A stretch of DNA of 46,113 nt from positions 1-46,113 of the forward strand of contig JWZX01003247.1 of NCBI GenBank assembly GCA_001275005.1, given 5' to 3'. A program made the translations under genes and the position numbers. Below the pieces are notes generated by a model. The model searched no databases, was not told where the DNA came from, and was given only the letters and a program-made list of their open reading frames with translations. The DNA comes from Chrysochromulina tobinii. Its lineage: Eukaryota. Within the stretch, counting starts at the first letter, position 1. Each line of letters opens with the position of its first letter. This document shows, in pieces, positions 1,907 through 45,843 of this stretch.

Positions 1907-2914
1907 AAAATGTTTGTGCAAGCAATGTGAACATGTGTGTATCGCTGTTTCGTGATCTGTGAAGTTATTTCCTAATATGGAAGCTGCCGGATTAGGCGTT
2001 TTCAATAGGGTGCTGGAAAAATTTACGCAAAGCGAGCGCGCGCTTCCACACAGGAGAAGGTCTCACGATGCCTTGTGTGGGGTCTGCTCGAGAAAAATGC
2101 TCGCCCATGAGGAAGCCTCCAGACATCCGCGGTCTCTCATGCTCGTACTCATGTCAAAAAACAAGGACGACGCCAATGGCGCCCTCAGAGTAGCCCTCCG
2201 AGCCGTTGCCAAGCCCGGACTCGCGATCGAGCTGTGACGGCTGGCGCCCAAAGCCACGGCACGACGGCCGCCTGCGGGTGCCGGCGCACCGCCTGCGCGC
2301 CTACCAGCACGCCCACCCGGTCAAACTGGCCAAGATGGCGCGCAAGCGCGCACAGCAGCGCTGGAGGCGGGCTGCTCACGCGATTTTGCAAGCAGGTGCG
2401 CGCACCTTTACGCTCGGGTGACGCACCTGAGGGCTGGCATTGTCGCGCACACCAACGCGTGCAACAAGGACGCCTTCCGCAAGCCGGTTCTCCGCTGCGT
2501 GGCCCGAAGACATTCGCTGATCGGACACCTTGAACACAATTCGTGGCGGCGGCCTTTGCGTCAAGGGTCATTGGGCCAGCCAACAGCTGCACCGCGGGCG
2601 CTGCGTGCTTGTATCCTGTGCTTCGCGGCGCGAGGCTCTTTCAAGACGAGCGCCCTGACCTCGCGTCTTGCCAAGGTGGTAGGAGCTCCTTGTGTGGCAA
2701 GAGCGACCGGCGCGTGTGCATCCTTTCAGGTGATGTCGGCGCAACGGTGGCAATCGCAATGCACGCCTCACCATAGGCAAGGCCCAAACTCGAGACGGTG
2801 AGCGACAGAGCGAGCAGTGCCCGTGTGGAGTATGTGCGCGCTGGCCTAGGGCGGTCGCAAGCTCGCTCTCGCGGGAGAATTAATACAGCTTCTCGGGCGA
2901 GGGAACGTCCCTGC

Positions 2915-3004
2915 CGCTGCACCTCGACGGGCATCATCCTGCGACGCTGCACCTCGACGGGCATCATCCTGCGACGCTGCACCTCGACGGGCATCATCCT
3001 GCGA
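2915..3004. repeat. Perfect 30-bp tandem repeat, 3 copies
   Basis: cgctgcacctcgacgggcatcatcctgcga x3, no spacers. Confidence 0.95.
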
Positions 3005-3531
3005 CCAAGCCGCACGCCATTGCGCTACGGGCTCGACGGCGGGGTCGCGCTCGGCTTAGCCGGCTTTAAGCGCTTTACGTTAAGGCTTAAGCGAAACGGG
3101 CTTGCAGCTAAGCGCGCGCATGATTAAACAAAACTTCAGCAGCGGGTCGAGGGTAAAGAAGCGTAAAGAAGCACAAGTTTGTCACAAAGGAATAGTTGAG
3201 CGGGGTCCGTGCCACCCCTCGCCGATATAGCCTGATAATGCCTGATTCTCCCCACGCGGGGAACGATCTGCACGATCTCCCGTCGATTTCATGTGCCAGT
3301 ACACTAGCCGAACACCGCCCCCGGGGGAGCGGTTGGGGAGCGGCTTCGCTTTGGGACGTCTGCGTTTCCATGTGTACTACTATGATTCTCTGGCTGCCGA
3401 TTGCTACGCGTCCTCGACGATTGCTCCACCTCGACCTGAACCGAACAAGACCCCTGGTGGTCCCTGTCTCCAACACATCTGTGGGTCGACTGCAAGGTCT
3501 GCTGCCGGTGCGGCGGACACTCACTCGGCTC

Positions 3532-6075
3532 TCACGGCGCGGCAAACATCTTGCCAAACATGGCCTTGTCCCTCCGCGATTGCTCCTTCATCGCCTCCTT
3601 GAGCTCCTCGAGCTCCTTGCGCACCTCGCGGTTCTGTGGGTCCGCCTTGGCGGCAGTGAGCAGATCCGCCTTCGCGCCTTCGAAGTCCAGATTCAAGCGC
3701 TTCGCCTGCGCGCGCCGGTACAGCGCCTTGACGTTCGCCATGTCGAGCTTGAGCGCGTCGTTGCTCGCCTTCTCCGCCATAGCTCCGTCCCCAAGCTTCA
3801 GATGGCACGCGGCGATGTTGAGGAAGCACGAGAGCGTGATGGCTTTCGACTCACTGAGTTTCGTCTCGATTTCTGCGTCCGACAGCACCGCTGCCGACCT
3901 CACCGAACTCGCCTCTGAAGCCTCCGAAGCCGCCGAAGCCGACGAAGTCGCCGCCGCCGCGCCATCCGAAATGTCGACCCCGGCCTTCTCCTGCTCCCCG
4001 GCCTTCTCCTCTCTCTCCTGTTTGAAATCGGAGAATCGGGGCGCCTTGGAGTTGGAATCCGTGTACCTGCGGAGCCATCTCATGCAATCGTGAATACTCA
4101 GAGGCACCCAACGGCACTCGGCGGCACTCAGGGGCACTCAGCGACGGGTGGACGAACTTGTGCAATGCGAATCGATACTCTCCACGCGCGAAGAGCTTGT
4201 TGCCGCGGCTCTTGAAGCGCATCTGCGCAGCGAGACGCTCCTCGCCGTCCATCGACCACGTCTCCTTGGCTCTGACGAAGCTGAGCAGCTCGAGCTCGAT
4301 CACGACGGCGCTCTCCCTTGCCAAAAAAGGACCAGTCGAATCGAAGCTGGGGCTGCCATACGCCCAAGCCGCCGCCGCCGTGAGCTGCACGAGCTCGCCC
4401 GATTTCATATGGCGGACGGCGGCGTCGATGCACGGCAGGACGCCGGCGGCACCGCCCTCGCTCTGCATAAAAGTACGCGGGCGCTCGATGGGCACCTCTT
4501 CGAGGACCTCGCCGTCCGTGCGCCACGACGGCGAGCCGCCGCCCTCGCCTTGGGCGGTCGAGGCAAGGCGGCGCACCGTGTAACGCACGACGCAGATGGA
4601 CTCTTCATTCGGGGTGAGGTGATCGCCCTTCTCCGACTCCCGCAGTATCTTTTTGATCACCAGCCCATCTGTGAACGGCACCTCCTCCACCTTCGTCCAA
4701 CTTTCGAGGCGCACCTTGAGGCACATGAGAGCACCGTCGGCGCCCGCGTCGGTGCCCGCGACGGCGCCCGCACCCGCCGTCTTGGGCAAGGAGACGCGCA
4801 GCTCCGCCGTCTCATACAGCTGCATCAGCGGCAGTAACGTCTCGAGCCGTGCCGCCAGATCCGCGGGAGATGCGCCCGTCACGGCGCCCTCCTTCTCGAC
4901 CAATCTCGTGCCGATCTCGGCCACTTCCACGTTCGACGCGATCGCACCGAGCGTCACCACCAGACCCTCGGCGCTCGATGCGACCGGCGCGCTGGGCGAT
5001 CTGCGCACCTCGAGATCGAGCTTGACCTCGTACCGCGCCCTCGCCCTCTCCCACCCCTGGCCGCGCCTGAGGACCCGCTTGAGCATCGAGCCGTCCTTGG
5101 TGGCTGAGATGTCTTCGACCCCCACCCAATGCAGCAGCTCGACGGTGATGAAGAGCTCCGCGTTCGGAGGTACGCCGAGATCGGGAGCTCCCGCAGCGCC
5201 GTACCCGAGGGCGGGCGCCACCTTGAGCTCGCACACCTGATGAGGGAGGCACTCAGAGGTCATCGGTCATCAGCGTGTAGGAATGGTGCGACCGCGAGAC
5301 ACTCAGTCGCAATCAGTCGCAATCAAGAGGAGCGCGAGACCCTCAGTCGCAATCAGTCGCAATCAGCGGCAATCAAGAGGAGCGCGAGACCACACACCTC
5401 GCCAGTCGTCATGCCGTTGGCGCCCACGACGGCGCTCTGAAAGAAGGTGGGAACGGACGCGTCGCCTGCTGTGAACGTCTGCTCGAAGTCCTTGAGAAAG
5501 GGTTCACCGTCGCGGCTCAGCCGGCCGGTCCACCTGAGCGTGATCTCGGCGCGCGAGCTCGGCCGCTCCCAGCTCGTGCCCTTGACGAGCCTCCACTTGA
5601 CGAGCTGGCCGTTGTGCGACTGGGTGCGCTCGAAGAGGCGGTGCAGCGTCATCTCGTACTCGAGCACGCTCGCCGCCGGCACGCCGCGCGCCGCGTCGCC
5701 CTCGTCGCCGTAGCCCTGTGAAGGCTGCACTGTGAAGTGCGACATCTCGCCCACTTGCATCGTCTTGAGCCCGGCCTCGACACCCGCGGGCAAGCCGGTG
5801 GATCCGACCGTCAGGCGCCTCCTCGTCGCCTCTTCGAAGGGAGTCTCGCTGCCGGCCACGCGCGCCTTGTAATCGACCTCGACGTCCCACTCTTGCTGCG
5901 GATTGTCGTAGTCGGCGCCCGCGGTGAGGAGCGTCTTGGTCACCGAGTGGTCCTTGAGCACGTCAAAGGTCTTGCCGACGTCCGAACTTTCGAGATGGTG
6001 AGCCGCAAAGTTGCTGCCATCGTCGGGGTCCTCCGGGATAAATCCTCCACCGCCCATTCCATCCGCGTCGTCCAG

Positions 6076-9198: not shown

Positions 9199-12100
9199 TC
9201 AGGACGCCGGCAGCGCAGCGGGCACGCGCACGAGCTCCCGCACGAGCTCGACGAGCTCGCGCTTGAGAAGCGGCACGAGTAGGCCCTCTCGCTCGAGGTG
9301 CATGGGCACGTTGTGATGGAACGTGTCATGCTCAACGACGACGACGGCGCGCCGCCCGCGCACACGCGCCGCCTGGGTCATGTCCTCGAGGTTGCCGCTC
9401 CCAACGTGCACTGCGACGCGGCCGACGCCGGTGCCGTCATTGCCGCTTGTGCCGGTACCGCCATTAGCGGTGCCGCCGCCGCTGGCGTGCTCTCTCGCGT
9501 GCTGCTCGAGCGCGCGGTCGATCGCCTGCGCACACGCATTCTTGGCCGCGTCCGGTACGAAAGAGCCATGCGAACGGCGGAGGTCGACGCGTGGGCCAAA
9601 AGCGAGCACACGCGCCGCCCGGTGCGCGTGCTGCAGCGCAGCGGTGGCGCCCATGGAGGAGCCGAGCATGAGCACACTCTCATACGGCGCTGCGTGCGCG
9701 TCGATGAGGGCGCCGTAGTGGGCGAGGCCCTCCCAGCCGCCGCGCGGGTCCTGCAGGTAGTACGAGTTGGACGGATCCGCCAGATAGAGCACATCGAGCG
9801 GCCCGCCCGCGGCGCGTGCAGCTGCGCACGGAACCTGCCACTGTTGCATGCCCGGCCCCTGCGCCGCGAAGGCGACGAGCAGCACGGGGGCACGATGGCC
9901 GACACACGCGGGCTCAAAGTGGTGGTCGACGAGGGCGAGGCGATCGTTCAACGTGCCTGCAAGCTGTGAAGGGGGCGTGCCGCGATTCCAGCCGAGCCCC
10001 ACGCGCGTGCCAGGCCATTCGAACGCCTCCTTCAAATCGAATTGGTTCGCACCGAGACCGAGGTTGAGAAGGGGCAGGTGGCGCAGCACACGCTCGCGGA
10101 GCTCGGCGAGGTTCGTCAACTCGTTCGCCTGCACGTAGAGGCTCTTGAGCTTCGTCAATTTGCGCAGCGACGTCGGCAGGTCGAGGAGCCGATTGTGGTG
10201 CGCCTCGAGCTTCGTCAATTGCGCGCACTCGCCCAACTCCTCCGGCAATTGACGAAGCTGGTTGCCAAACAGCCAGAGCTCGCGCAATTGACGAAGCTGG
10301 CCGATGGAGCGCGGCAGCTCCGTCAATCGATTGGCCTCAAGGCAGAGCGTCGAGACGTTGGGTAGCGCGGGCAGCAGCTCGGCGACCGACACGATACCGT
10401 TCGAGCCGAGCTGCAGCCGCTTGAGATGGCGCCCCAGGTGCGTCGTCGTGAGCTGCTCGAGCAGTTGCGTCGGCGGCCGCGTCAAAGGCGGCGTCGGCGT
10501 CAGTGTCGGCGCCTGTGGCGGCGTCTGCGTGAGCGGCGATGGCGGATCGTGCAGACGATTGAAGGAGGCCAGCAGGGCGGTCAGCGCACTAGCATGCATC
10601 GGGAGCAGCGGTAGGGAGGTTTGGTCGTTGCCTTCGAGCTCGAGCACAGCGAGATGCGGGGAGGCGAACGCGCCCGTCGTGTCGAGCTCGACACGGCGCG
10701 TTGAGCTCGACACGGCGCCATCGGATGGGAGCTCTCCTTCGTCGCCTCCCTCAGCCGCCCTCGTTCGGCGCTGCTCGTCAGTCTCGTCAGTCTCGTCAAT
10801 CTCGTCAGTCTCGTCAGTCTCGTCAGCCGCCCTCGTTCGGCGCTGTAGGCCCCAGCGCAGGTGCTTGAGCTTCGCGCAGCGCAGGACCACAGGAGGTAGG
10901 GAGGCGAAGGCGTTGTCCTGCAGGCTGAGCACGTGGAGCTGCGGAAGGTCGGCGAGCCAGCACGGGAGCTGTGAAAAGTCATTCGAGCTGAGTAGAAGCT
11001 CGCCCAGCTCGATCAAGTGGCTCAGGTCGTCGGGGAGGGCGCGTAATTGATTCTCGGACGCGTCGAGGACTCGCAGCGCACGCAATCCGCCCAGCGCCTC
11101 GGGGAGCTCGACGAGTGCACGCCGACGCACGGAGAGCGTCGTGAGGGTCGCACTATGCATGCTCCACCAGCCGCGCTCTGTGGGGAGAGGCGAGGGGAGC
11201 GCCGTAGTGGGCAGCTGGGCGCGCGCGAGGGGCTCAACGCCGGTGTGAGGCGTCCCCGCCGTCGTGGGCGCCTCGGGCACATGCCCATCCGCATCTTCGA
11301 ATGCAGTCTCGTCAATCTCGTCAGTCTCGGCCGCCCGCTGCGTCGCGCTCGACACGGCGCTCTCGGTCAGCCCATGAGGCGACCTGAGCGCCGTACCGAG
11401 CGCCGCCTGGTAGCCCGTCAGCGCCGCATCGGCACACGCGAGCGCCGTGGTGGCAGCAGACGCGTCCCCAGCCGCGGCGGCAAAGCGCGCCATCTGCATC
11501 GTCACCAGCGCCGTGTCGAGCAGCTCGCGTGTGGACATCGTACTGAGCGCCGCTTCGCGCAGTGCGTGTCTGTTTGGAAGGCCTTGCGGCACCGCCCCAC
11601 TGCTCCTAATGAGGCAGTCGACCGCTCGGAGAGTGAGAAGCCAATCGCATGCCTCCGCAGCCTCGGCCCACCGCTCCTGCAGACTCCAGACGCCGATCAA
11701 GAGCACGAGCACAGGCGCCGTGGCGGCAGCGGTGGGCAGCTGGGTAAAGGACGCGCCCGGCACAGCGCCCAAGGACGCGCCCGGTACAGCGCCCATGGCA
11801 GAGGAGGCGGGCGGCGGCGGCGCGCCTGGGGTCATGGCGAAGCATGCCGACTGCCTAATTAGGAGTGGCGTGATGCCCAAACGTGCCGCCGCCCGAAGGC
11901 ACAACGCCTCCGCTCGGGACAGCGCGCCCTGACGAAACGCTTCGGTCGCTCTGGGTAGAAGCAACGAAGGCTCCTCCTCTTCCACAGCGCCGTCGCAAGC
12001 GCCCGCATTCACAGCGCCAGCGCCGCCGCTCGTGACGTGGCCCGCATCGTCGTCGGTCCTCGGTGGTTCGTCATCTGCTCGGGACGGCGCGCGTGCCTCG

Positions 12101-15100
12101 GCTCCCGCGCCCGCGGCAGCTCCCGCGCCCGAAGCGGCGCGCTTGAGCAGCAGCAAGAGCGCCGCCGCGAGCGCCGGGACGGTCGTGTGTTCATAGATCA
12201 GGTTGAGAGGGAGTGTGAGGGATGTGCATGCATCGAGCGCCTCGCGCAATCTGGCGGCCGAGATCGACGAGAGGCCCGCGTCGAAGAGGTCGTCCTCCTC
12301 GCTCACCTGATGAGGGACGCAATCAGCATGCACTCAGAGATGCACTCAGAGATGCACTCAGAGGTCGTCCTCCTCGCTCACCTGATGGAGGACGCAATCG
12401 GCATGCACTCAGGAGTCCTCTCACCGCCTCGCCGCTCGCCTCGAGCATGGCGCCGATCACCAACTGTTGACATTCAGCGAAGCTCCAGCCCGGGGAGCGA
12501 GCGCCCACGACGGCGCCACGTCCAGATCTACCCGAGATCGGCGCGCCCGCAGAGGGGAAGGACGGCGTCGCCGCCGCCGCCGTCGACGCCGCCGTCGCCG
12601 CCGCTGCCGCCGCCGCCACTGCTGCCTTCCCCTCCGTCGCCTCCGCCTCCGCCTCCGCCTCCGCCTCCTCTCCCTCCTCTCCCACCTCCGCAGCTGCTGA
12701 GCGCTGTCGTGGGCGTCTCACAGCCGCCTTCCGAGCCTCCGCGCGCCTCGCCGCATCGAATGCATGCGCCTTCCGAGCCTCCGCGCGCCTCGCCGCCTCA
12801 TGCTCCAACGGCTGCTTCACACGCAAGTCCAGTGTGAGCATGGGCGTCCCAGTGCGCAGGCTTGGCAGTTGGAACGCTTCGGCCAGCCCGATCCGTAGCG
12901 GTTTACCGGTCGGTCCACGTGGCAGCGAGGGGAGCATCAGGAGCATCTCGGGCAGCCACCGACGCGAGAGCAGGCCGTTCGAGCCCGCGGCGCGCCGGAT
13001 CCGATGAGAGGGGTCATCAGAGCGGTCATCAGAGAGGTCATCAGAGGTATCATCAGACGTATCATCAGATCCGGGACCATTAGAGATGGAGCGTACCTGG
13101 GCGAGCGTCACCGTCCGCCCCGACTCGCATACGACCGCCACGCCCACCGCCTCGCCCAGCTCCTCGTGCGGCGCGGCGAAGGCGAGCACCTCGCGCACCC
13201 AACCGTACAGCTCGCCCGCGGGCCGTCGCGCCGTGCCGGGCGCCGTGCCGGGCGCCGTGCCGGGCGCCGTGTCGGGCGCCGTGGTGGGCGCCGTACCGAG
13301 CGGCGCGGTGGGCGGCTCGTCGGGCGCCTCGGGCCCGATGCATGCGGCGAGCAGCGCGTGCTCGACCGCGAGCGGCGAGATCTTCTCGCCCGCGCGGTTG
13401 ATGACCTGATGACGGGGGCAATCCGCAATCAGATGACCTGAGTACGTAATCAGCAATCCGCAATCATACGCAATCAGATGAGTGGGGGGGGGGGCACTCA
13501 GAGTGGCTCAGCGACCAGAGCAGCAGCAGCAGCGAGGCACTCAGAGGCAATCCGCTGATGACCTCCTTGAAGCGGCCGGTGAGATGCAGGTGGCCTTCCG
13601 AGTCGAGCCACCCCTTATCTCCTGTCCGGAGCCAGCCGCCCGGATAGAATGCTTCCAAATTTGGGTCGTATCCGAGATGAGCCCGAGGCTCGTAACCACC
13701 AAAGACGCACGCGCCGCGCACGAGGACCTCACCTTCCACTCCCGGAGCGCCTTCCAAATTAAGGAGGCCGGGGCTCCCATCGGAGCTGTACGAGCTCACG
13801 CCCACCTCGGGCCCGGCCGCGGGGCCGACGGAGGCGAGCTTGCGTCGGGTGCGCTCGCGCGGGTTGGCACAGATGGGCAGGGCTTCGGTCATCGCGTAGG
13901 TCGGGAGCACGAGCGCACCTGATGAGGCAGGCAATCAGAGGGACTCAGCGGCCATCCGACGCCATCCGACGCGAAATCCGACGCAATCAGGGGCGCACCG
14001 GGCAGCGCTTCCTCGAGCTGCTCCCCAATGGATGGAGCGAGAGCGGCGGAGCAATTGCGGATAAAGGCGAGTTGGTGAGAGGGAGGCATGCCGGTCGAGG
14101 CACGCACGCTCAGAGCGTAGCGGAGCACCTCCATGTGGATGGTCGGCACGGCGCTGTACCAGGTAGGCGCCGTCGTGGGCGCGCCCAGCAGCGCCTCCGC
14201 CGTGTCCGCTGCCGGCGCTCGGCTCGGCTGTGTCGGCCTTAGGCCAAGGCATGCAAAGAATTGGGCGGCCTCGAATCGGGGCAGGCAGAGCACCGGCGCC
14301 CCGGCCAGCGCCGTGACGAGCACATTGACCATGAGTCCGTGCAGGTGGAAGAGCGGCATCACATTGAGAGCGAGGGTGGTGCGGTCGAGTCGGAGGGTCG
14401 AGCGTACGCAGAGCGCGCCGACCCCCATGGAGGCATGGGTGAGAGGGACCACCTTGGACGGAGGGAGATCGGAGGGAGATCGGAGGACGATGAGGGAGAT
14501 CGGGCGGAGATGAGGGAGATCAGGCGGAGATCGGGCGAAGAGGGAGGTGATCAGAGGGAGATGATCAGAGGGAGGTCAGAGGGAGATTGATCAGATGAGG
14601 GGGGCACCTTTGGACGACGCGTCGTGCCACTCGTGTGCATCACGAGCGCGATCGCCTCACGCCCAGGACGACGCCCCGCAGCCGCAATCGATCCGGAGGC
14701 GGTGCTGGCAGAGGCGCGAACAGCACGCTCGACGGCCGCGGAGGTTGCACACGTCAAGGTGAAGGCTCCGCATAGTCGCAAGTCCGGATGAAGGACCAGT
14801 AACTGCAGCCCCAGCCGCGGCACTGCCACCCTGGCTGCCGCCGAGTGACGGCCCGCTGGCACGATCAGCGCAGCGGCTGGTAGATCCTGAGGGCATCGCG
14901 GAGCGATCAGAAGCGGTCGGAGAGGAGCATCATCAGACGCAATCAGACGCAATCAGAGGGCAGGTGCTGAGGGTGCCGACGTAATCTGAAGCCATCCGAC
15001 GCAATCTGAGTCAATCTCCCACCTCGAGCTCAAAGAGGGTTTCGGCGTCGGAGAGGTCGGGGTTGAGAGGCGCGAGGGGTAGCAGTGAGCTGAGCGCGAG

Positions 15101-16570
15101 AAAGCACGCGGCCAGCTCGGGGGAGGATGGCAATGAAGTCGCCACGCGCTCGTGCGGCAGGAGGTACGCGCTGTGTCTGGCACGCGACGATGCGATGTCG
15201 TCGTCGTCGTCGTCACCCTCCTCACCCGCCCGACACGGCGCCTCCCCATCCCCTCCCCTAAACCACTCGCCCCCTCCAAGCAATTGTTCACCGAGCCGAC
15301 GCGAGAGTTCACGCAGCGCACGGAAGCTCAAGGGCGCACGCGCATCTCCGCACGCCGAGGCGGGACAAAAGGCAGAGCCCTCATCCGACGGCATCAGATC
15401 GAGAAGACGACTAAAGGCGAACTTCTCGGCGGCGGCGGCGGCGCTCAGAGGCGCTGTAGTGGGCGCTGTGGTGGGCGCTGTGGTGGGCGCTGTGGTGGGC
15501 GCTGTGGCGGCGGCGGCGGCGGCGCTCAGAGGCGCTGGCGGCGGCGGCGGCGGCGGCGGCTGCGGCTGTGGCGGCGGCGGCGCTCCTGACTGCAGCGCCG
15601 CTGCCGTCGGCGGCGGCGTCACGACGTCGCTGCCCACCTTGACGCCGCCGCCCACCTCCCAATGGTCTCCCGGGCAGAGCACGCGTCGGATGGTCAATGA
15701 GACTCGTCGACCACGCACGAGACGGCGCCGCGCCGTCTCGGGCGCAACATGCTCGGGGAGCGCCGTCTCGGGCGCCATCTCGGCCACCGCCTCGGGCGCC
15801 ACCTCGTCCGTCGCCTCGGCCAACGCGCCGTCGGCACCCCGACCGCCGAGCCAGAGCGACGCGCTCATGTCATCCTCGGTGGCTCTCGAGACGCTATGGA
15901 GCGCGTGCGCGTACGCGTCGCCCTCGAAGACGAGCAGTCCACGCCGCGGGAGGAGCAGCGAAGCCAACGGCCGTCGGACGATCACGTCCGAGGACGTGTC
16001 CTCTTCGAGGAACTCAAAGGCCGTGTGGGATCCGAGGCTCAGGATGGCCACGCGTGCCGCGTACAGGGGACCGTCCTTGTGCGCGTCGATGCCCTGCCCC
16101 GGCTGGTACTCGTTGAGGAGCACGTGATTGGGCGGCGAGTCCTCGGGGAAGACGCCCGCGCGCACGAGCTGCTCGCACACGCTCTGCACCCACGCCGGCA
16201 GCGGCTCGTGCACCATCGGCATGGCTGGCTGGCCGCCAAACATTTGCAGCCGTCGGCCGCGAAGCGTCGTCCAGCCGTCAGGCGGCGCACTATCGGCACA
16301 GCGAAGCAACTCTGCTTCCTCCTCGCTGCTGACCCACTCGCGCACGTGCGCGACGCCACCGATGCCACAGCGCACCGTGTGCGCTCGAGGGTCAAAGAGC
16401 TGCCGGTCTGGCCGTGCTGGCAGCAGGTAGTGGTGGAGTGGTGCGGCAGCGCCGCTTTGGTGGACTGGCGGCGATACAGGTGCTTCTGCGGCGGCCGGTT
16501 TCGCGCCAGTTGGGGCGGCTGCGGCGCGCGCCTTGGCCTTCTCGGCCTTTAGGAGCGCCGCGAAGTCCAT
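9199..16570 (-). CDS. NRPS-like multidomain protein of about 2200-2240 aa: ALKBH6-like 2OG-Fe(II) oxygenase, AAE3/Pcs60-like adenylation domain, phosphopantetheine carrier domain, helical region, LRRs, alpha/beta-hydrolase; exons 16570-15023, 14886-14608, 14452-13999, 13918-13563, 13405-12425, 12306-9199
   Basis: Oxygenase: NHVLLNEY..HKDGPLY..H..RVSLTIRRV. Adenylation: HTSGTTRRPK, MPLFHLHGL, TWYSAVPTIH, YAMTEA, RTGD, INRAGEKISP, PTGK. Carrier: DLFDAGLSSISA..LIYEHTTV. LRR: LxxLxLxxNxLxxLP. Hydrolase: LGSSMGA. Five GT-AG introns join all pieces in frame (6726 nt). Confidence 0.8.
12307..12424 (-). other. GT-AG intron (118 bp, phase 0) with an internal second AG|GT junction at 12382/12381
   Basis: GCG|GTGAGAGG...CCCTCATCAG|GTGAGCGAGG; restores the carrier domain EASGEA|VSEEDDLFDAGLSS. 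Confidence 0.85.
13406..13562 (-). other. GT-AG intron (157 bp, phase 0)
   Basis: GAG|GTCATCAG...CGTCATCAG|GTCATCAA; restores TGRFKE|VINRAGEKISP. Confidence 0.92.
13919..13998 (-). other. GT-AG intron (80 bp, phase 1)
   Basis: G|GTGCGCCC...GCCTCATCAG|GTGCGCTC; restores EEALPG-ALVLPTYAMTEA. Confidence 0.9.
14453..14607 (-). other. GT-AG intron (155 bp, phase 0) made of gatctccctc repeats
   Basis: CGTCCAAAG|GTGCCC...CGTCCAAG|GTGGTC; restores TSGTTRRPK|VVPLTH. Confidence 0.9.
14887..15022 (-). other. GT-AG intron (136 bp, phase 0)
   Basis: GAG|GTGGG...GCCCTCAG|GATCTA; gattgcgtc repeats; restores LFELE|DLPAAALIV of the adenylation domain. Confidence 0.85.
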
Positions 16571-40771: not shown

Positions 40772-43700
40772 TCACGCATGGTGGACGGCGGCCCCGCCCT
40801 GCTGTATCAGCAGCATGCACCATTCAGTGTGGAATGTGGAGGGAAGGTGCGAGACGAGTTCGGCCGCCATCGGCACGAGCGCCGGCGGCTTGGTGCTCAT
40901 GAAGAGCGTGTGTAGCGCTCGCAAGCCGGACAGCGCCGCAGCGCGCTGCTCGGCCGTCGACGAGCTTCGATGGGCGCCTAGCCGGACGGCGTCGAGATGG
41001 GCGCGTGCCTCGCGCTTGAATTGGGCATACAGCACGTCATCGCCGAGCCGCGCCTTGATTTGCATCATTAAGTGCTTGCCTCGCTCATGCGCGCCGTCGT
41101 GGGCCACACGCTCCCGCGCACCGCTACCAGCACCGCCGCCGCCACCGCCCTCGGGTTTTGGTGCCCTCGCGTCGTCGTCGTCGCCGGCGTCGGCGGTGCC
41201 GCACCTCTCCGCCGTCGCCGTCCTTGGGCGCTTTGACTCCGGGGGATGGGCGGCCGCGGAGGCTGCTGCGGTTGCGGGCCGTTTGGGAGCAACGGCAGAG
41301 GCGGCGGCCGAGGCGGCGGCCGAGGCATGCTCGGCAGGAGCAGAGCGATCGACAGGGCCTGGCTGCTTCGGCGTCGGGTGTGACGAACCTCGGTCTGCTG
41401 TTGACGAACCTCGGTCTGCTGTTGACGAACCTCGGTCTGATGTTGACGAACCTCGGTCTGCTGTTGACGAACCTCGGACGCCGTTCGAAGTTGCCCCTAC
41501 TCGCGCCGCTGATGCCGCTTGCAGCTGCCGAGAGCCACCAGTGAAAGCGGGCGAGGCACCGCTTCCGCTGGTGAGAGCAGCGCCGGCGCCGGCGCCGCTC
41601 GCACCACCGGCGCTCGCCGCCCCACCTGCCGCGGCCCCACCTGCCGCCGCCCCACCTGCCGCCGCCCCACCTGCCGCCGCCCCCGCTCTTGCCGCGCCCG
41701 ATCCCGTCGATGGCAGGGCGCTCAGCGGGGCGCGCGGCACAAAGCGAGCGCCTGGCGTGGTCGTGACTGGCGGCGGCGGCGCCGACGTCGCAGGTCCACC
41801 GCCGGCATGGCCCATCGCGCCGCCGGTGTGCACTCGCGAGGCGGCGGCGGCGGCGACAATTGCGGGCATAGACGCGGCCGCGGGGCGAACTTGAGGCACC
41901 GTGGGGTGAGGCGCGGAGCCGTACTGAGCACTTGCATGCAGGGCCGCGGGGCGAACTTGAGGCACCGTGGGCGGAGGTGCGGGCGGATAGCCAGGGCCAG
42001 ACCCGGGCCGGACAGATCTGGCCGGACCTGCCGCTAGACCCGTCGGCAGTCCTTGGCTGTGCGCCGCCGCCGCCGACGACGACGACTGCGTAGGTGCACC
42101 GTTGACGAACCCCTTCGTGCCTCCCGGCGCCAGCGCTGGTGGACCGGTAGGCCCTAAGAGTGCAGATGAGCCCCCTCTCGCCGCCGCCGCCGCCACCGCC
42201 GCTGCTGCTGCGTGCGACCCGGGGGCGGCTCGCTTGGTGGGCAGCGGCGCCGTAGCGGAGGCTGCCACCTGCAGCGCCATTAGCACCTGGCGCACGTGCG
42301 GCAGGTGCTTTGGGACGAAGCGCACGAATCTCGCGCGGAGCTCCTCTCGCCCCGGCATGCCGAAGAGAGATCGCATCTGGTGCTGCATCTCGTGGGGCAC
42401 CACCTCCATCGGAAGGCTGGCGCTGCCGTGAGCACCATGGTTGGCGCTGCCGTGGGCGCCATCGGACGGTTTCGGGAGCGCGAGAAGGGCACGTACGAGA
42501 GCCATGAAGCGAGCATACTCCTCGGCCGTGAGCAGGGTGCGCGCGAGGTTGAGCAGGTCTACAGCCGTCACTGGCGCAGCCGAGGAGCCAGCCGAAGTGC
42601 TCGCAGCTGCCGCCGCCGCTGCCTCCGCCGGCCTCGCAAGAAGCTGATGGCCACCACCGCCCCCCCCCGCCCCGCCGCCCACACGAATGCCACCACGTAC
42701 CGAGGTTTCCCCGGGGTGTAGGCGCCAGTCCTCACGTGGCGGTGCCCACGCCGCCCTTCGCTGCGCTGTCGTGGAGGCGGCAGCGGCGGCACTGCCGGCA
42801 GCGCCGGCGGCGGCGGCGGCGGCGAAGGAAGGGTCGGGTTCTTTCGTGTCACCGCCAGCCACGTCATCGATCATCGCTTGAGCGCCGCTGGGCTCGTCGG
42901 TGTAACGACCCTCGCCGCCACTGCTGACCGCAGCTGCCCAGGCTGCCTCGACGACAGCACCGCTCCTGCCAAGGCCGCCTCCGCCGAGCCCGACACGACC
43001 GGCGCCGCCACCCTCCTCCGCGTCCGCAGCCGCAGCGGCAGCAGCGGCGGCGGCTGAGGTGTACCGAGCACCCTTGCTACTACTACTGGCGAGTGCAGCG
43101 TGCAGCGAGGGCGTCGGTGCGGGTGGCGGCAAAGCGGGCAACGGCCGAGGTCCGAGCGGAGCGCATGGGGTGGCCGCATGGACGCTCTCGCCTTCTTCGA
43201 GCTCCACCGTCCCAACGTCCCCAGACGCGGTGGAGGCGAGCTCCGAGCGTAACTTGAAGAAGCGCTGCAAGGCAGGGTAGCCCTGCCCGAACGAGCTGAA
43301 CTGCTTCACGTGCGGACGCAGCCACAACGAGAGGCCGTCGACCCATGCGCTCTTTGCAAAACGAGACTCGCAAAGCATCACCGCGCCAAAGTCGTTGCGG
43401 TGTCGAATGACACGGCCGACCGCCTGGTTGACCGCACGCATCGCCTGTTGATGATACCATGCTTCCCCGGACAGCATGCCAGAGGCGCCCGAGCCGCCCA
43501 GCCCCGAGCTGCGTGCCGCGCCCGCGCGCCGCTGGTCGAGATACTGCCGCTTGAGCTCGACCTTGGCATCGAACGCAGGCGGAAGCGGCAGACCAGTGAT
43601 CACGACGCCACGGCACGCGCTGTCGGCAAAGTCGACGCCTTCGGACAGCTTGCCGCGGCACACAGCGAGCAGCATCGCGCCGCCCGTGCCACGGAAGAGC

Positions 43701-45843
43701 GAGGATTGGACGGCATCCTGGAAGGTCTGAACGGCCGCCGCGCATTCGGACGCGTCTCGCGGCTCGACGACGAGCGTCTTGAGCTTACGCAATCGCTCGA
43801 GCACCGAAGGGCCGCCGTCGGGTGATGCCAACGCCCACGCGGCGTGCGCTGACTGCATGGCCGAGTAGGAGGGGAAGAAGACGAGGACGCCCTGCGGCAC
43901 GAGGCGCGCGAAGTTGATGATCGCATTGCCCAGGTCGCGCTTCGCATCCTCGCTCTCGCGCTGAGCGTACGACGAGGTGAGCTCATGCCCCGAGGGCCCC
44001 TTGGTGAAGGTGCCGATGAGCAACTGCGCCTGCGGATCGATGACGTGCGGGTTCTCGAGCTTGTACTCAAAGGGCAAGCCCAGCTCATCAGCGAATGAAC
44101 CCAGGGGAGAGAGCGTACCCGAGGTAAGCAGCACGGAGCGCACGCCCGCCGCCTTGAGCGCGCGCATCGCCGCACCCGAATGGAAGCACCAGTAGCCGAG
44201 CACACGTGGCTTGGCGTCGAGCGTGCCCGCGGCCCGTGCCTTGCCCCCGGCGCCGCCCCCCTTGCCGCCCTCGCGCTCTTTCAACTCGTGGATGCAAAGC
44301 CGGTACTCTGCGGGCGAGCGCTCGGGGTCGAACGCAATCTTGAATGCGTCCGCGAGCTTCTGCAGATTGAAGGAGCTCCCCGCGGTCACGCCGAAGCGTG
44401 CTGCCTCACCCAGTGTGGTGACGCACCTGCATCCAAGGCGCGATCCGCAGCGAATCAGTGGTCAGCAAAGCCCGTCAGACGCGCTGGGCGAGCAGAGTGT
44501 CTCCACAGCCATCCACGCACCTCTCACAAAGTTCGACCAGAGGCGTGACCGTGACACCGTCGATGCCTGCCGCGCCGAGCATTCGACCGAGCTCCTCACC
44601 GGCCGCCACGTACCGAGCCTCCGCGCGCGTCTGCTGCAGCGGCACCTTGGCGACGCTCTCGTCCACCGCCAGCAGCAGCTGACGCAGCCGGACGAGCTCA
44701 TCAGGGCTCACGCCGCGCACGCCGCCGTTGGCATTCTCGAGACCGTCCACCTCCGGGTCGACCGCCTCGGAGTCATCGGCGCCGCGGTTCCGTGCGCCCG
44801 CGAGGAGCCGGTCGACCTCGCGCACCGCTCCCGCGAGCTCAAGCGAGCTCAGGTCGAACGAGGCGGCGTCGGCGCACACGCGCTCGATGTTATGCGCTTC
44901 GTCAAAGATGAGCACGTCGCTCGCCAGGTTGATGTTGAGCGCGCGCCGCACCTTCGAATCCAGCAGCAGGAAGGTGGCAATCAAAGGGACTCAGTGGCAG
45001 TCCACCAGGGCACTCAACGGAATTCAACGGCACTCAGCTGGAGCGCGCTGCACCTTCGGATCCAGCAGGTAGTTGTATGGGAGGAAGAGCACGTCCGAGC
45101 ACACCTGTGGGGAGTGTGGGGCGTCGTGATGAGCACTTGCATGCAGGGAAGAGGATGAGGAAGAGCACTTCCGAGCACACCTGCAGCTCCCGCGCGAGGT
45201 AAAATGGGCAGAGCTCGTCGCGCTTGGAGGAGCTCACGAAGTCCTCGATGTCGGGCACGGCGCGCACGCTCTCGTCGGCCGCCGCCTGCGGGTGCGCCAG
45301 CGAGCCGTGCTTGCGCTTCGCCTCCTGCAGCTTGCGATAGTAGACGCAAGACTGGGCTGCTGTCAGTGCCTGGCACGCGGCAGACTGCGACGGGCCAGTG
45401 AGCTTTGATACGTCCTGGTGGCAGCAGAGCTGCTCGCGTGAGCCGAGCATGCAGACGAGCGGCCGGTGCACCGTGCGACGCAGCTCGCGCACCACCTGCT
45501 GCAGCTGCGAGTGTGTGCGCGAAGCGTAGATGATCCTCGGCACGCGCCCGTCGCCGCCGCCGCCACCGCCGCCCGTCCCGAGGGTGGCCGACAAACCCGC
45601 GGCCCACGCTGCGCCTGCCGCGACGTTCGCCGACGCCGCACGCTGCCGCTGGATCTGCGCGCGCCGCCACCCAAGGGCCGCGCACAGCAAGCAGAGCGTC
45701 TTGCCAGTGCCAGTTGGGCTCTCAAGCAGTGCGTTGGAGCCGTGCTCGAGCGCGAGCACGACCTTTTCCATGTACACGAGCTGGACCGGGTAGGCCTCGA
45801 AGGGGAAGTCGACCGCGCATCCCGCGATGTCATACAATGGCAT
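40772..45843 (-). CDS. RTEL1: Regulator of telomere elongation helicase 1 (Fe-S DEAH helicase), about 1599 aa; exons 45843-45181, 45104-45054, 44951-44521, 44426-40772
   Basis: ESPTGTGKT, IIYASRTHSQL, Fe-S cysteines (LCC, AC, SC, LCPFY), PYNYLLD, DEAHN, LTSGTLSP, RGKLSEGVDF, QAVGRVIRHRNDFG, LSLWLRP; harmonin-homology-like helical segments in the tail favour RTEL1 over FANCJ. Spliced length 4800 nt. Confidence 0.9.
41381..41477. repeat. Coding 21-bp tandem repeat, about 4.6 copies (GSSTADR) in the RTEL1 tail
   Basis: tgacgaacctcggtctgctgt repeated, one variant unit. Confidence 0.95.
44427..44520 (-). other. GT-AG intron (94 bp, phase 2) in RTEL1
   Basis: AG|GTGCGTGG...ATGCAG|GTGCGTCA; restores LCER-CVTTL. 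Confidence 0.85.
44952..45053 (-). other. GT-AG intron (102 bp, phase 0) in RTEL1
   Basis: CCGAAG|GTGCAG...TTCGAAG|GTGCGG; contains an in-frame stop; restores LLDPK|VRRAL. Confidence 0.9.
45105..45180 (-). other. GT-AG intron (76 bp, phase 0) in RTEL1
   Basis: CAG|GTGTGCTCGGAAG...CCCCACAG|GTGTGCTCGGACG; restores RELQ|VCSDVLFLPYNY. Confidence 0.92.

Follow-up and report, generated by a model that had tools for sequence, protein, structure and literature searches.

The RTEL1-like gene and its 66-bp unit

The window analyzed here is a 46,113-nt stretch of DNA from the freshwater alga Chrysochromulina tobinii; another of its genes encodes a product that, where the two align, shows 100% identity to a protein labelled with this species name. 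A long frame on its minus strand matches RTEL1 helicases and is modeled as a four-exon, RTEL1-like helicase gene (40772..45843) that encodes 1599 aa once three segments (45105-45180, 44952-45053, and 44427-44520) are removed. Over the helicase part, the model matches two haptophyte-like relatives, P0002 and P0003, at 63%. All three introns lie on the minus strand. Intron 1 (45105..45180; 76 nt; GT-AG) is real at the protein level, because its deletion restores the alignment to both relatives; it combines duplicated sequence of the next exon with a linker, a conserved core, a C-rich tract, and a terminal CAG. Its 27-bp target duplication (45157..45183, with one mismatch to the partner copy at 45081-45107) provides the GT donor. 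In intron 2 (44952..45053; 102 nt) the filler is a different one and AG|GT is flanked on each side by host duplication, and intron 3 (44427..44520; 94 nt) features a short duplication at its junction.

The exon sequence further downstream harbors a 66-bp unit at residues 1201-1232, in a low-complexity tail past the helicase domain where P0002 and P0003 do not align; the site alone is likely of little functional weight. As the initial annotation had described, an exact 30-bp direct repeat (41876-41905 and 41942-41971; period 66) encodes PTVPQVRPAA twice, at residues 1201 and 1223, and the minus-strand frame is open throughout. The full duplication is longer, at 41 bp with three mismatches, of which two change one codon, and only 25 nt of the unit are foreign. 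Read along the minus strand, the first host copy (41942..41982) is followed by the filler (41917..41941) and the second host copy (41876..41916). A 19-mer (41925..41943) recurs in intron 1, which bears out another of the annotation's claims; at its start it shares 3 nt of microhomology with the end of the duplication, and 3' microhomology at the unit scored 0. The 16-mer within it occurs exactly twice in the window (41926-41941 and 45131-45146).

The assembly is sound at this position. In an independent metagenome contig (L053 and L054 are one contig), 141 nt around the unit are identical, and both repeat copies with the same HPTV junction are present in all seven long alleles among the 15 listed of 31 cluster members. 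These two observations exclude a consensus error, which the annotation had flagged for checking.

Two readings of the unit had been offered: a non-canonical GT-CG intron, precisely spliced out, or an exonised insertion tolerated because its length is a multiple of three (3n). The intron reading draws on a GT directly after the repeat junction, on a length of 66 nt that falls within the range of the family introns described below (64-123 nt), and on the core, which may carry a branch site. Its 3' end, however, is not part of any element. Because the duplication reaches 41 bp, the terminal CCCCACG is duplicated host sequence, and because the CG lies inside the second host copy, the filler is the core alone and the unit lacks the C-rich tract and CAG of the family introns. 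The earlier description of the same filler having ended on CG in place of AG is thus corrected: the 3' module was never copied here. Intron 1 and the unit were also considered as a close parent-offspring pair and rejected as such, since the two sequences diverge just after the 19-mer and intron 1 instead matches an intron of another locus.

A family of introns with a shared core

To place the unit within a family, we scanned 16 of 64 metagenome parts, which yielded 128 matches to an 18-mer of the core. We stored 127 loci and dropped three: L021 and L115 proved to be chance matches with no family sequence past the motif, and L048 was also left out. With one mismatch allowed, 299 occurrences formed 233 clusters, of which 11 were skipped at contig ends; the remainder resolved into 146 distinct sites in 124 loci plus the window, 121 of them single-core. 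All family counts refer to the window and the loci around these 128 matches from 16 of 64 parts. A GT/GC..AG pair is present at 72 sites, and the motif is enriched in introns, as the annotation had anticipated.

Family likeness spans the core and the 3' part rather than the whole intron. Conservation covers roughly 4 nt upstream and 26 nt downstream of the motif start and reaches 89-98% over seven positions outside the search pattern. Three builds recur: (i) a copy of the next exon starting with GT/GC, followed by core, tract, and CAG; (ii) the family's own 5' end, followed by the core and a copy of the previous exon ending in AG; and (iii) the core alone between two host copies, as in the 66-bp unit. 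For acceptors of the first build, an upstream copy of at least 12 nt was found in 58 of 106 cases versus 5 of 105 in the null. Target duplications vary from 10 to 47 bp, fillers from 20 to 100 nt, and the shortest family intron found is 64 nt; AG stands before the donor in only 30 of 55 cases.

These traits bear on the type of element involved. The short, fixed-length duplications and fixed ends of MITEs and DNA transposons are not seen. Variable target duplications and 5'-truncated copies, a combination expected of target-primed reverse transcription by non-LTR (SINE-like) elements, are both present, along with captured flanks, and none of the copies inspected has a poly(A) tail. Sites anchored at the 3' end only outnumber those anchored at the 5' end only by 31 to 3, a skew that splice selection on donors could also yield. 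The 19-mer has no match in viral contigs, where a longer pattern has a single host-like match at a contig end, and bacterial and archaeal genomes returned no match to the family. An Rfam search of L007, L020, and L042 recovered no family and thus no small-RNA source of the core. A core hairpin with a four-base loop was rejected as a signal, given its weak fold (-3.4 kcal/mol) and the lack of compensatory changes in variants.

Cores occur at 43 per Mb within the window and at 95 per Mb in flanking sequence, densities biased upward by clustering. Scaled to the 59-Mb genome (PMC4580454), they suggest 2,500-5,600 family copies.

Some cores are amplified in tandem. L007:9820-10210 contains four antisense 51-nt units that encode repeated peptides in an open frame, and L049:4240-4593 contains eight tandem core units. 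In L057 (cores near 6014, 6081, and 6658), the core begins where the family 3' end stops, a head-to-tail join of the sort that a circular template or a slip would produce.

Frame and strand of the insertions

An insertion event could be defined at 96 of the 121 single-core sites; we excluded the 25 multi-core clusters and the 25 sites that showed no clear event, and tallied separately six sites with an acceptor whose register was not clean. A model self-trained on the same loci assigned coding context from the empty site.

The 72 events with a splice pair comprise 40 in sense orientation, one antisense, and 31 uncalled. Lengths of the 41 coding events among them show no 3n bias (14, 18, and 9 for remainders 0, 1, and 2). 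The 18 events without a splice pair behave differently: all ten in coding context (seven sense, three antisense) are 3n, or nine of nine when the 66-bp unit is set aside, versus two of the eight in non-coding context (2, 4, and 2). With Fisher p values serving as a guide only, because thresholds were chosen after inspecting the data, coding copies with and without a pair differ in frame (p = 1.5e-4) and in orientation (antisense in 3/10 without versus 1/41 with a pair, p = 0.02); the one antisense copy with a pair is itself 3n. The exonic reading, tolerance owing to 3n length, is therefore strongly backed at the family level (10/10 versus 14/41).

Copies lying antisense within long frames of L007, L033, and L040 cannot be introns of their genes. 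Together with the 3n restriction in coding DNA, such copies argue against the GT-CG intron, for which an element-borne 3' end and a sense-only class free in length would be expected; neither is found. The duplicate copies of 11 exonic events show 28 differences, 17 of them at third codon positions (p = 0.003); 14 of the changes are synonymous and 14 non-synonymous. Exonic copies account for about one tenth of classified events.

Donor chains and probable recent gains

Related introns of the family reside in many unrelated genes, and precisely spliced introns with empty alleles occur within it, though not for the 66-nt unit. In L071, two neighboring introns of the family have perfect duplications of 40 and 30 bp; L036 and L063, from other strains, lack both introns, and each of their empty sites contains one copy of the duplicated sequence. 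Perfect copies on haplotypes that are 3.6% apart would favor recent gain over loss. Clean empty sites were recovered for two of the 46 events covered by another locus, where some of the cover is the same strain; among loci with orthologous cover, no exonic copy had an empty allele.

The empty alleles speak to a further explanation, in which the unit is what is left of an older intron after partial conversion by spliced cDNA replaced both of its ends. The duplicated exon does sit, in many introns, about where the family's own 5' end would be, and some introns, such as RTEL1 intron 2, have host copies on both sides. But empty alleles contain no intron at all, antisense copies cannot derive from a resident intron, family-own sequence at both ends occurs at just 1 of 121 sites, and the duplication at the unit lacks AG|GT. 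We regard conversion of a resident intron as decidedly unlikely and retain insertion as the preferred reading.

Several introns can be paired with a donor. RTEL1 intron 1 matches the L034 intron over 70 nt at 90%, and 14-16 nt of this match are the L034 intron's host-derived flank, from which the intron 1 linker was likely taken. Further pairs run from L039 to L026 (75 nt at 96%), from L060 to L020 (70 nt at 97%), and from L125 to L103, in addition to a local pair in L020. In the traced pairs, the shared linker before the core is part of the donor's own host duplication. At L022:4410-4587, inside an EttA-like gene, the whole L060 intron is present from GT to AG without a long duplication, and this copy was later expanded by 47-nt tandem units. 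The host gene is a bacterial-type EttA-like ABC-F (NCBIfam E 2.5e-14 on 43 aa, under the curated cut-off). Captured flanks and the whole-intron copy indicate that progeny introns act as donors.

Microhomology at the junctions modestly exceeds a simulated null on both sides (5' mean 2.35 versus 1.34, n = 37; 3' mean 3.4 versus 1.68, n = 10). Microhomology at both junctions of a templated filler is a feature of insertions of the polymerase theta type. Local copying as a general rule was rejected, with same-locus copies no more alike than distant ones (7.35 versus 6.75 mean mismatches); three traced donor pairs are nonetheless local. No clear distant case of copying beyond the donor's AG was found among the family loci, and an inverted local pair in L014 is only suggestive of it.

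Other fillers and repeats

A second filler family, ending in CCCTCATCAG and bearing short internal repeats, occurs in the window at 12285-12412 (minus strand), 5244, 13926, and 18567. Its copy at 12285 has a 28-bp duplication with a period of 75 and lies directly after another such end. For CCCTCATCAG-type acceptors in the loci, a duplication of at least 12 nt was found in 27 of 76 cases versus 3 of 75 in the null. Three more 3n units of duplication plus filler, each with other fillers, lie in open frames at 10751-10845, 12725-12796, and 15427-15537 (periods 72, 42, and 81; repeats of 23-30 bp) and are likely exonic products of the same process.

The RTEL1 tail also contains a 21-bp tandem repeat (41381-41456) whose copy number varies among alleles (P0001 versus P0131). 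Its TGACGAACC motif recurs in L007 and L128 and possibly represents another filler family. At L014:340-380 and L057:10210-10270, strains differ by the presence or absence of 56 bp, in which some 27 bp of duplicated sequence frame a filler of repeated CCCTAATATGG. Related motifs of the form CCCTAATT also occur in exons of L007 and at the end of an intron; these motifs may resemble telomere repeats. Elsewhere in the window, a leucine-rich-repeat-like gene with 84-bp repeats occupies positions 1-1900 of the plus strand.

Transcript evidence

RNA data touch the unit lightly: six runs contain 0.10-0.18 of the window's words. One 244-nt contig (contig 3 of run X15; 41779-42022) retains the unit without a gap. 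It has a depth of 2.5, derives from a related strain, and is possibly DNA, as the same run also contains a piece upstream of the start codon. Within the unit, the contig's three listed differences comprise two synonymous substitutions and a Ser-to-Ala replacement. No joint that skips 66 nt is present among 15 listed of 16 in four RNA runs. The runs likewise show no joint across the RTEL1 introns, including 45105-45180, so the gene lacks a positive control. Duplication-type introns are spliced elsewhere: in polyA run X18, L007 introns of 101 nt (with a 14-nt duplication) and 207 nt (with core-like copies) are both joined precisely at GT..AG. Also in L007, among the joints listed, an antisense exonic core is joined to its unique exon (X20 record 23) in a record that stops short of bridging the whole insertion.

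The contig that retains the unit and the missing 66-nt joint add weakly to the case against a GT-CG intron, which we consider very unlikely. Partial removal, or alternative retention, through a cryptic in-frame pair was weighed on the same data. Two 42-nt GT..AG pairs (41965-41924 and 41931-41890) overlap the unit in frame; at 42 nt, however, they are shorter than any family intron, and no 42-nt joint is found among those listed in the four runs. We consider this reading very unlikely as well.

Proposed origin of the unit and the family

We propose that the 66-bp unit consists of RTEL1 coding sequence, duplicated over 41 bp, on either side of a 25-nt family core, and that it is likely translated rather than spliced. 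A length divisible by three and a location in a low-complexity tail likely account for its retention. The unit is most likely an exonised misfire and not a proto GT-CG intron; the annotation's claim that one insertion process produced both the unit and intron 1 is supported.

The family inserts with a variable target duplication of 10-47 bp, in either orientation, and takes in the flank of earlier copies; insertions are filtered by frame and strand. A mechanism consistent with these observations would begin with a staggered break in the target, from which a free end may anneal by 2-4 bases to an existing family intron. Some 20-70 nt would be copied from that intron before rejoining, and fill-in would create the duplication. 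Selection would then keep two kinds of product: sense copies in which the duplication starts with GT/GC and the copied part ends in AG, giving new introns of any length, and 3n copies free of stop codons, such as the 66-bp unit, giving peptide inserts.

As for the template, an intron-bearing RNA has about an even chance, DNA template switching is a serious but lesser candidate, and a dedicated transposase is improbable. The whole-intron copy and 5' truncation point to RNA, though splicing selection could shape both signs, and the inverted local pair in L014 together with the microhomologies fits DNA switching as well. More broadly, and tentatively, the introns may need no dedicated transposon to spread: any intron of the family, probably in RNA form, could template the repair of staggered breaks, and in-frame misfires could have written the same short peptides, read in sense or antisense frame, into perhaps hundreds of proteins. 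With a parent intron as the repair template, each new intron would be a chimera of target exon and the parent's 3' half, and would later itself be a parent. If so, captured flanks permit a parent-to-offspring pedigree of spliceosomal introns.

The origin of new spliceosomal introns is a long-standing question, in part because the parents are seldom traceable. In this family, parent introns can be named from captured flank, and gains are still polymorphic among strains. Surviving failed insertions provide a built-in control that separates insertion, which is blind to strand and frame, from selection, under which a copy must be spliced or preserve the frame. The related copies suggest intron gain in which older introns are copied blindly and selection acts afterwards. 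The value of the 66-bp unit is as one member of this control class within an active, traceable intron-making process.

Comparison with known intron-gain systems

For C. tobinii, a 2025 survey lists zero introner families (PMC12130899, file 7), which suggests that searches for likeness across entire introns may overlook such a family, and the available text of the genome paper mentions introns once (PMC4580454). We found no description of the core family in the literature searched, mostly outside subscription journals. In the same genus, introners of a marine Chrysochromulina sp. show a 4-bp duplication, supply the 5' site themselves, and co-opt a 3' site (10.1101/2022.06.06.494994; PMC9860276); no terminal inverted repeats are reported for them in the accessible portions of these papers. 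The core motifs have no match in the searched rows of the PMC9860276 supplement, which may contain no sequences.

The closest parallels are the introners of Symbiodinium and Polarella glacialis (classes 4/5 and 6/8/10), which bring their own 3' splice site and obtain the 5' one through target duplication (10.1101/2020.10.14.339549; 10.1101/2022.06.06.494994). As in those systems, a repeated element of the C. tobinii family supplies AG and recruits GT/GC from duplicated target. In the sections available, however, duplications in Symbiodinium and Polarella are 3-8 nt and fixed per class, whereas those of C. tobinii are variable. Symbiodinium elements have inverted repeats, while the ends of the C. 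tobinii family are not fixed and host-derived flank is passed on. Persistence of truncated copies as in-frame peptide inserts, in both orientations, is a further difference from the accounts of both dinoflagellates that we could consult.

In Daphnia pulex, introns are gained through staggered double-strand break repair, and, as here, a direct repeat of neighboring exon sequence brackets the insertion (PMC4202315). The Daphnia repeats are shorter, at 4-12 bp, and the portions of that report available describe no shared filler family. Insertions without splice signals are expected there to be purged, and the four fates listed omit retention of the whole insertion in frame (PMC4202315), which is found in C. 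tobinii. Tandem genomic duplication of AGGT and intron transposition appear as separate mechanisms in another account (PMC3443670, seen in part). The C. tobinii family resembles both, in that a duplicated exon segment gives a splice site and an intron can be copied whole (L060 to L022); it unites them in one event, and AG precedes a donor in little more than half of the cases. Plain reverse splicing into mRNA is excluded by the antisense copies. Overall, the length of its target duplications sets the C. tobinii family apart from described introners, and the present analysis adds an exonic class, insertion in both orientations, and donor chains.
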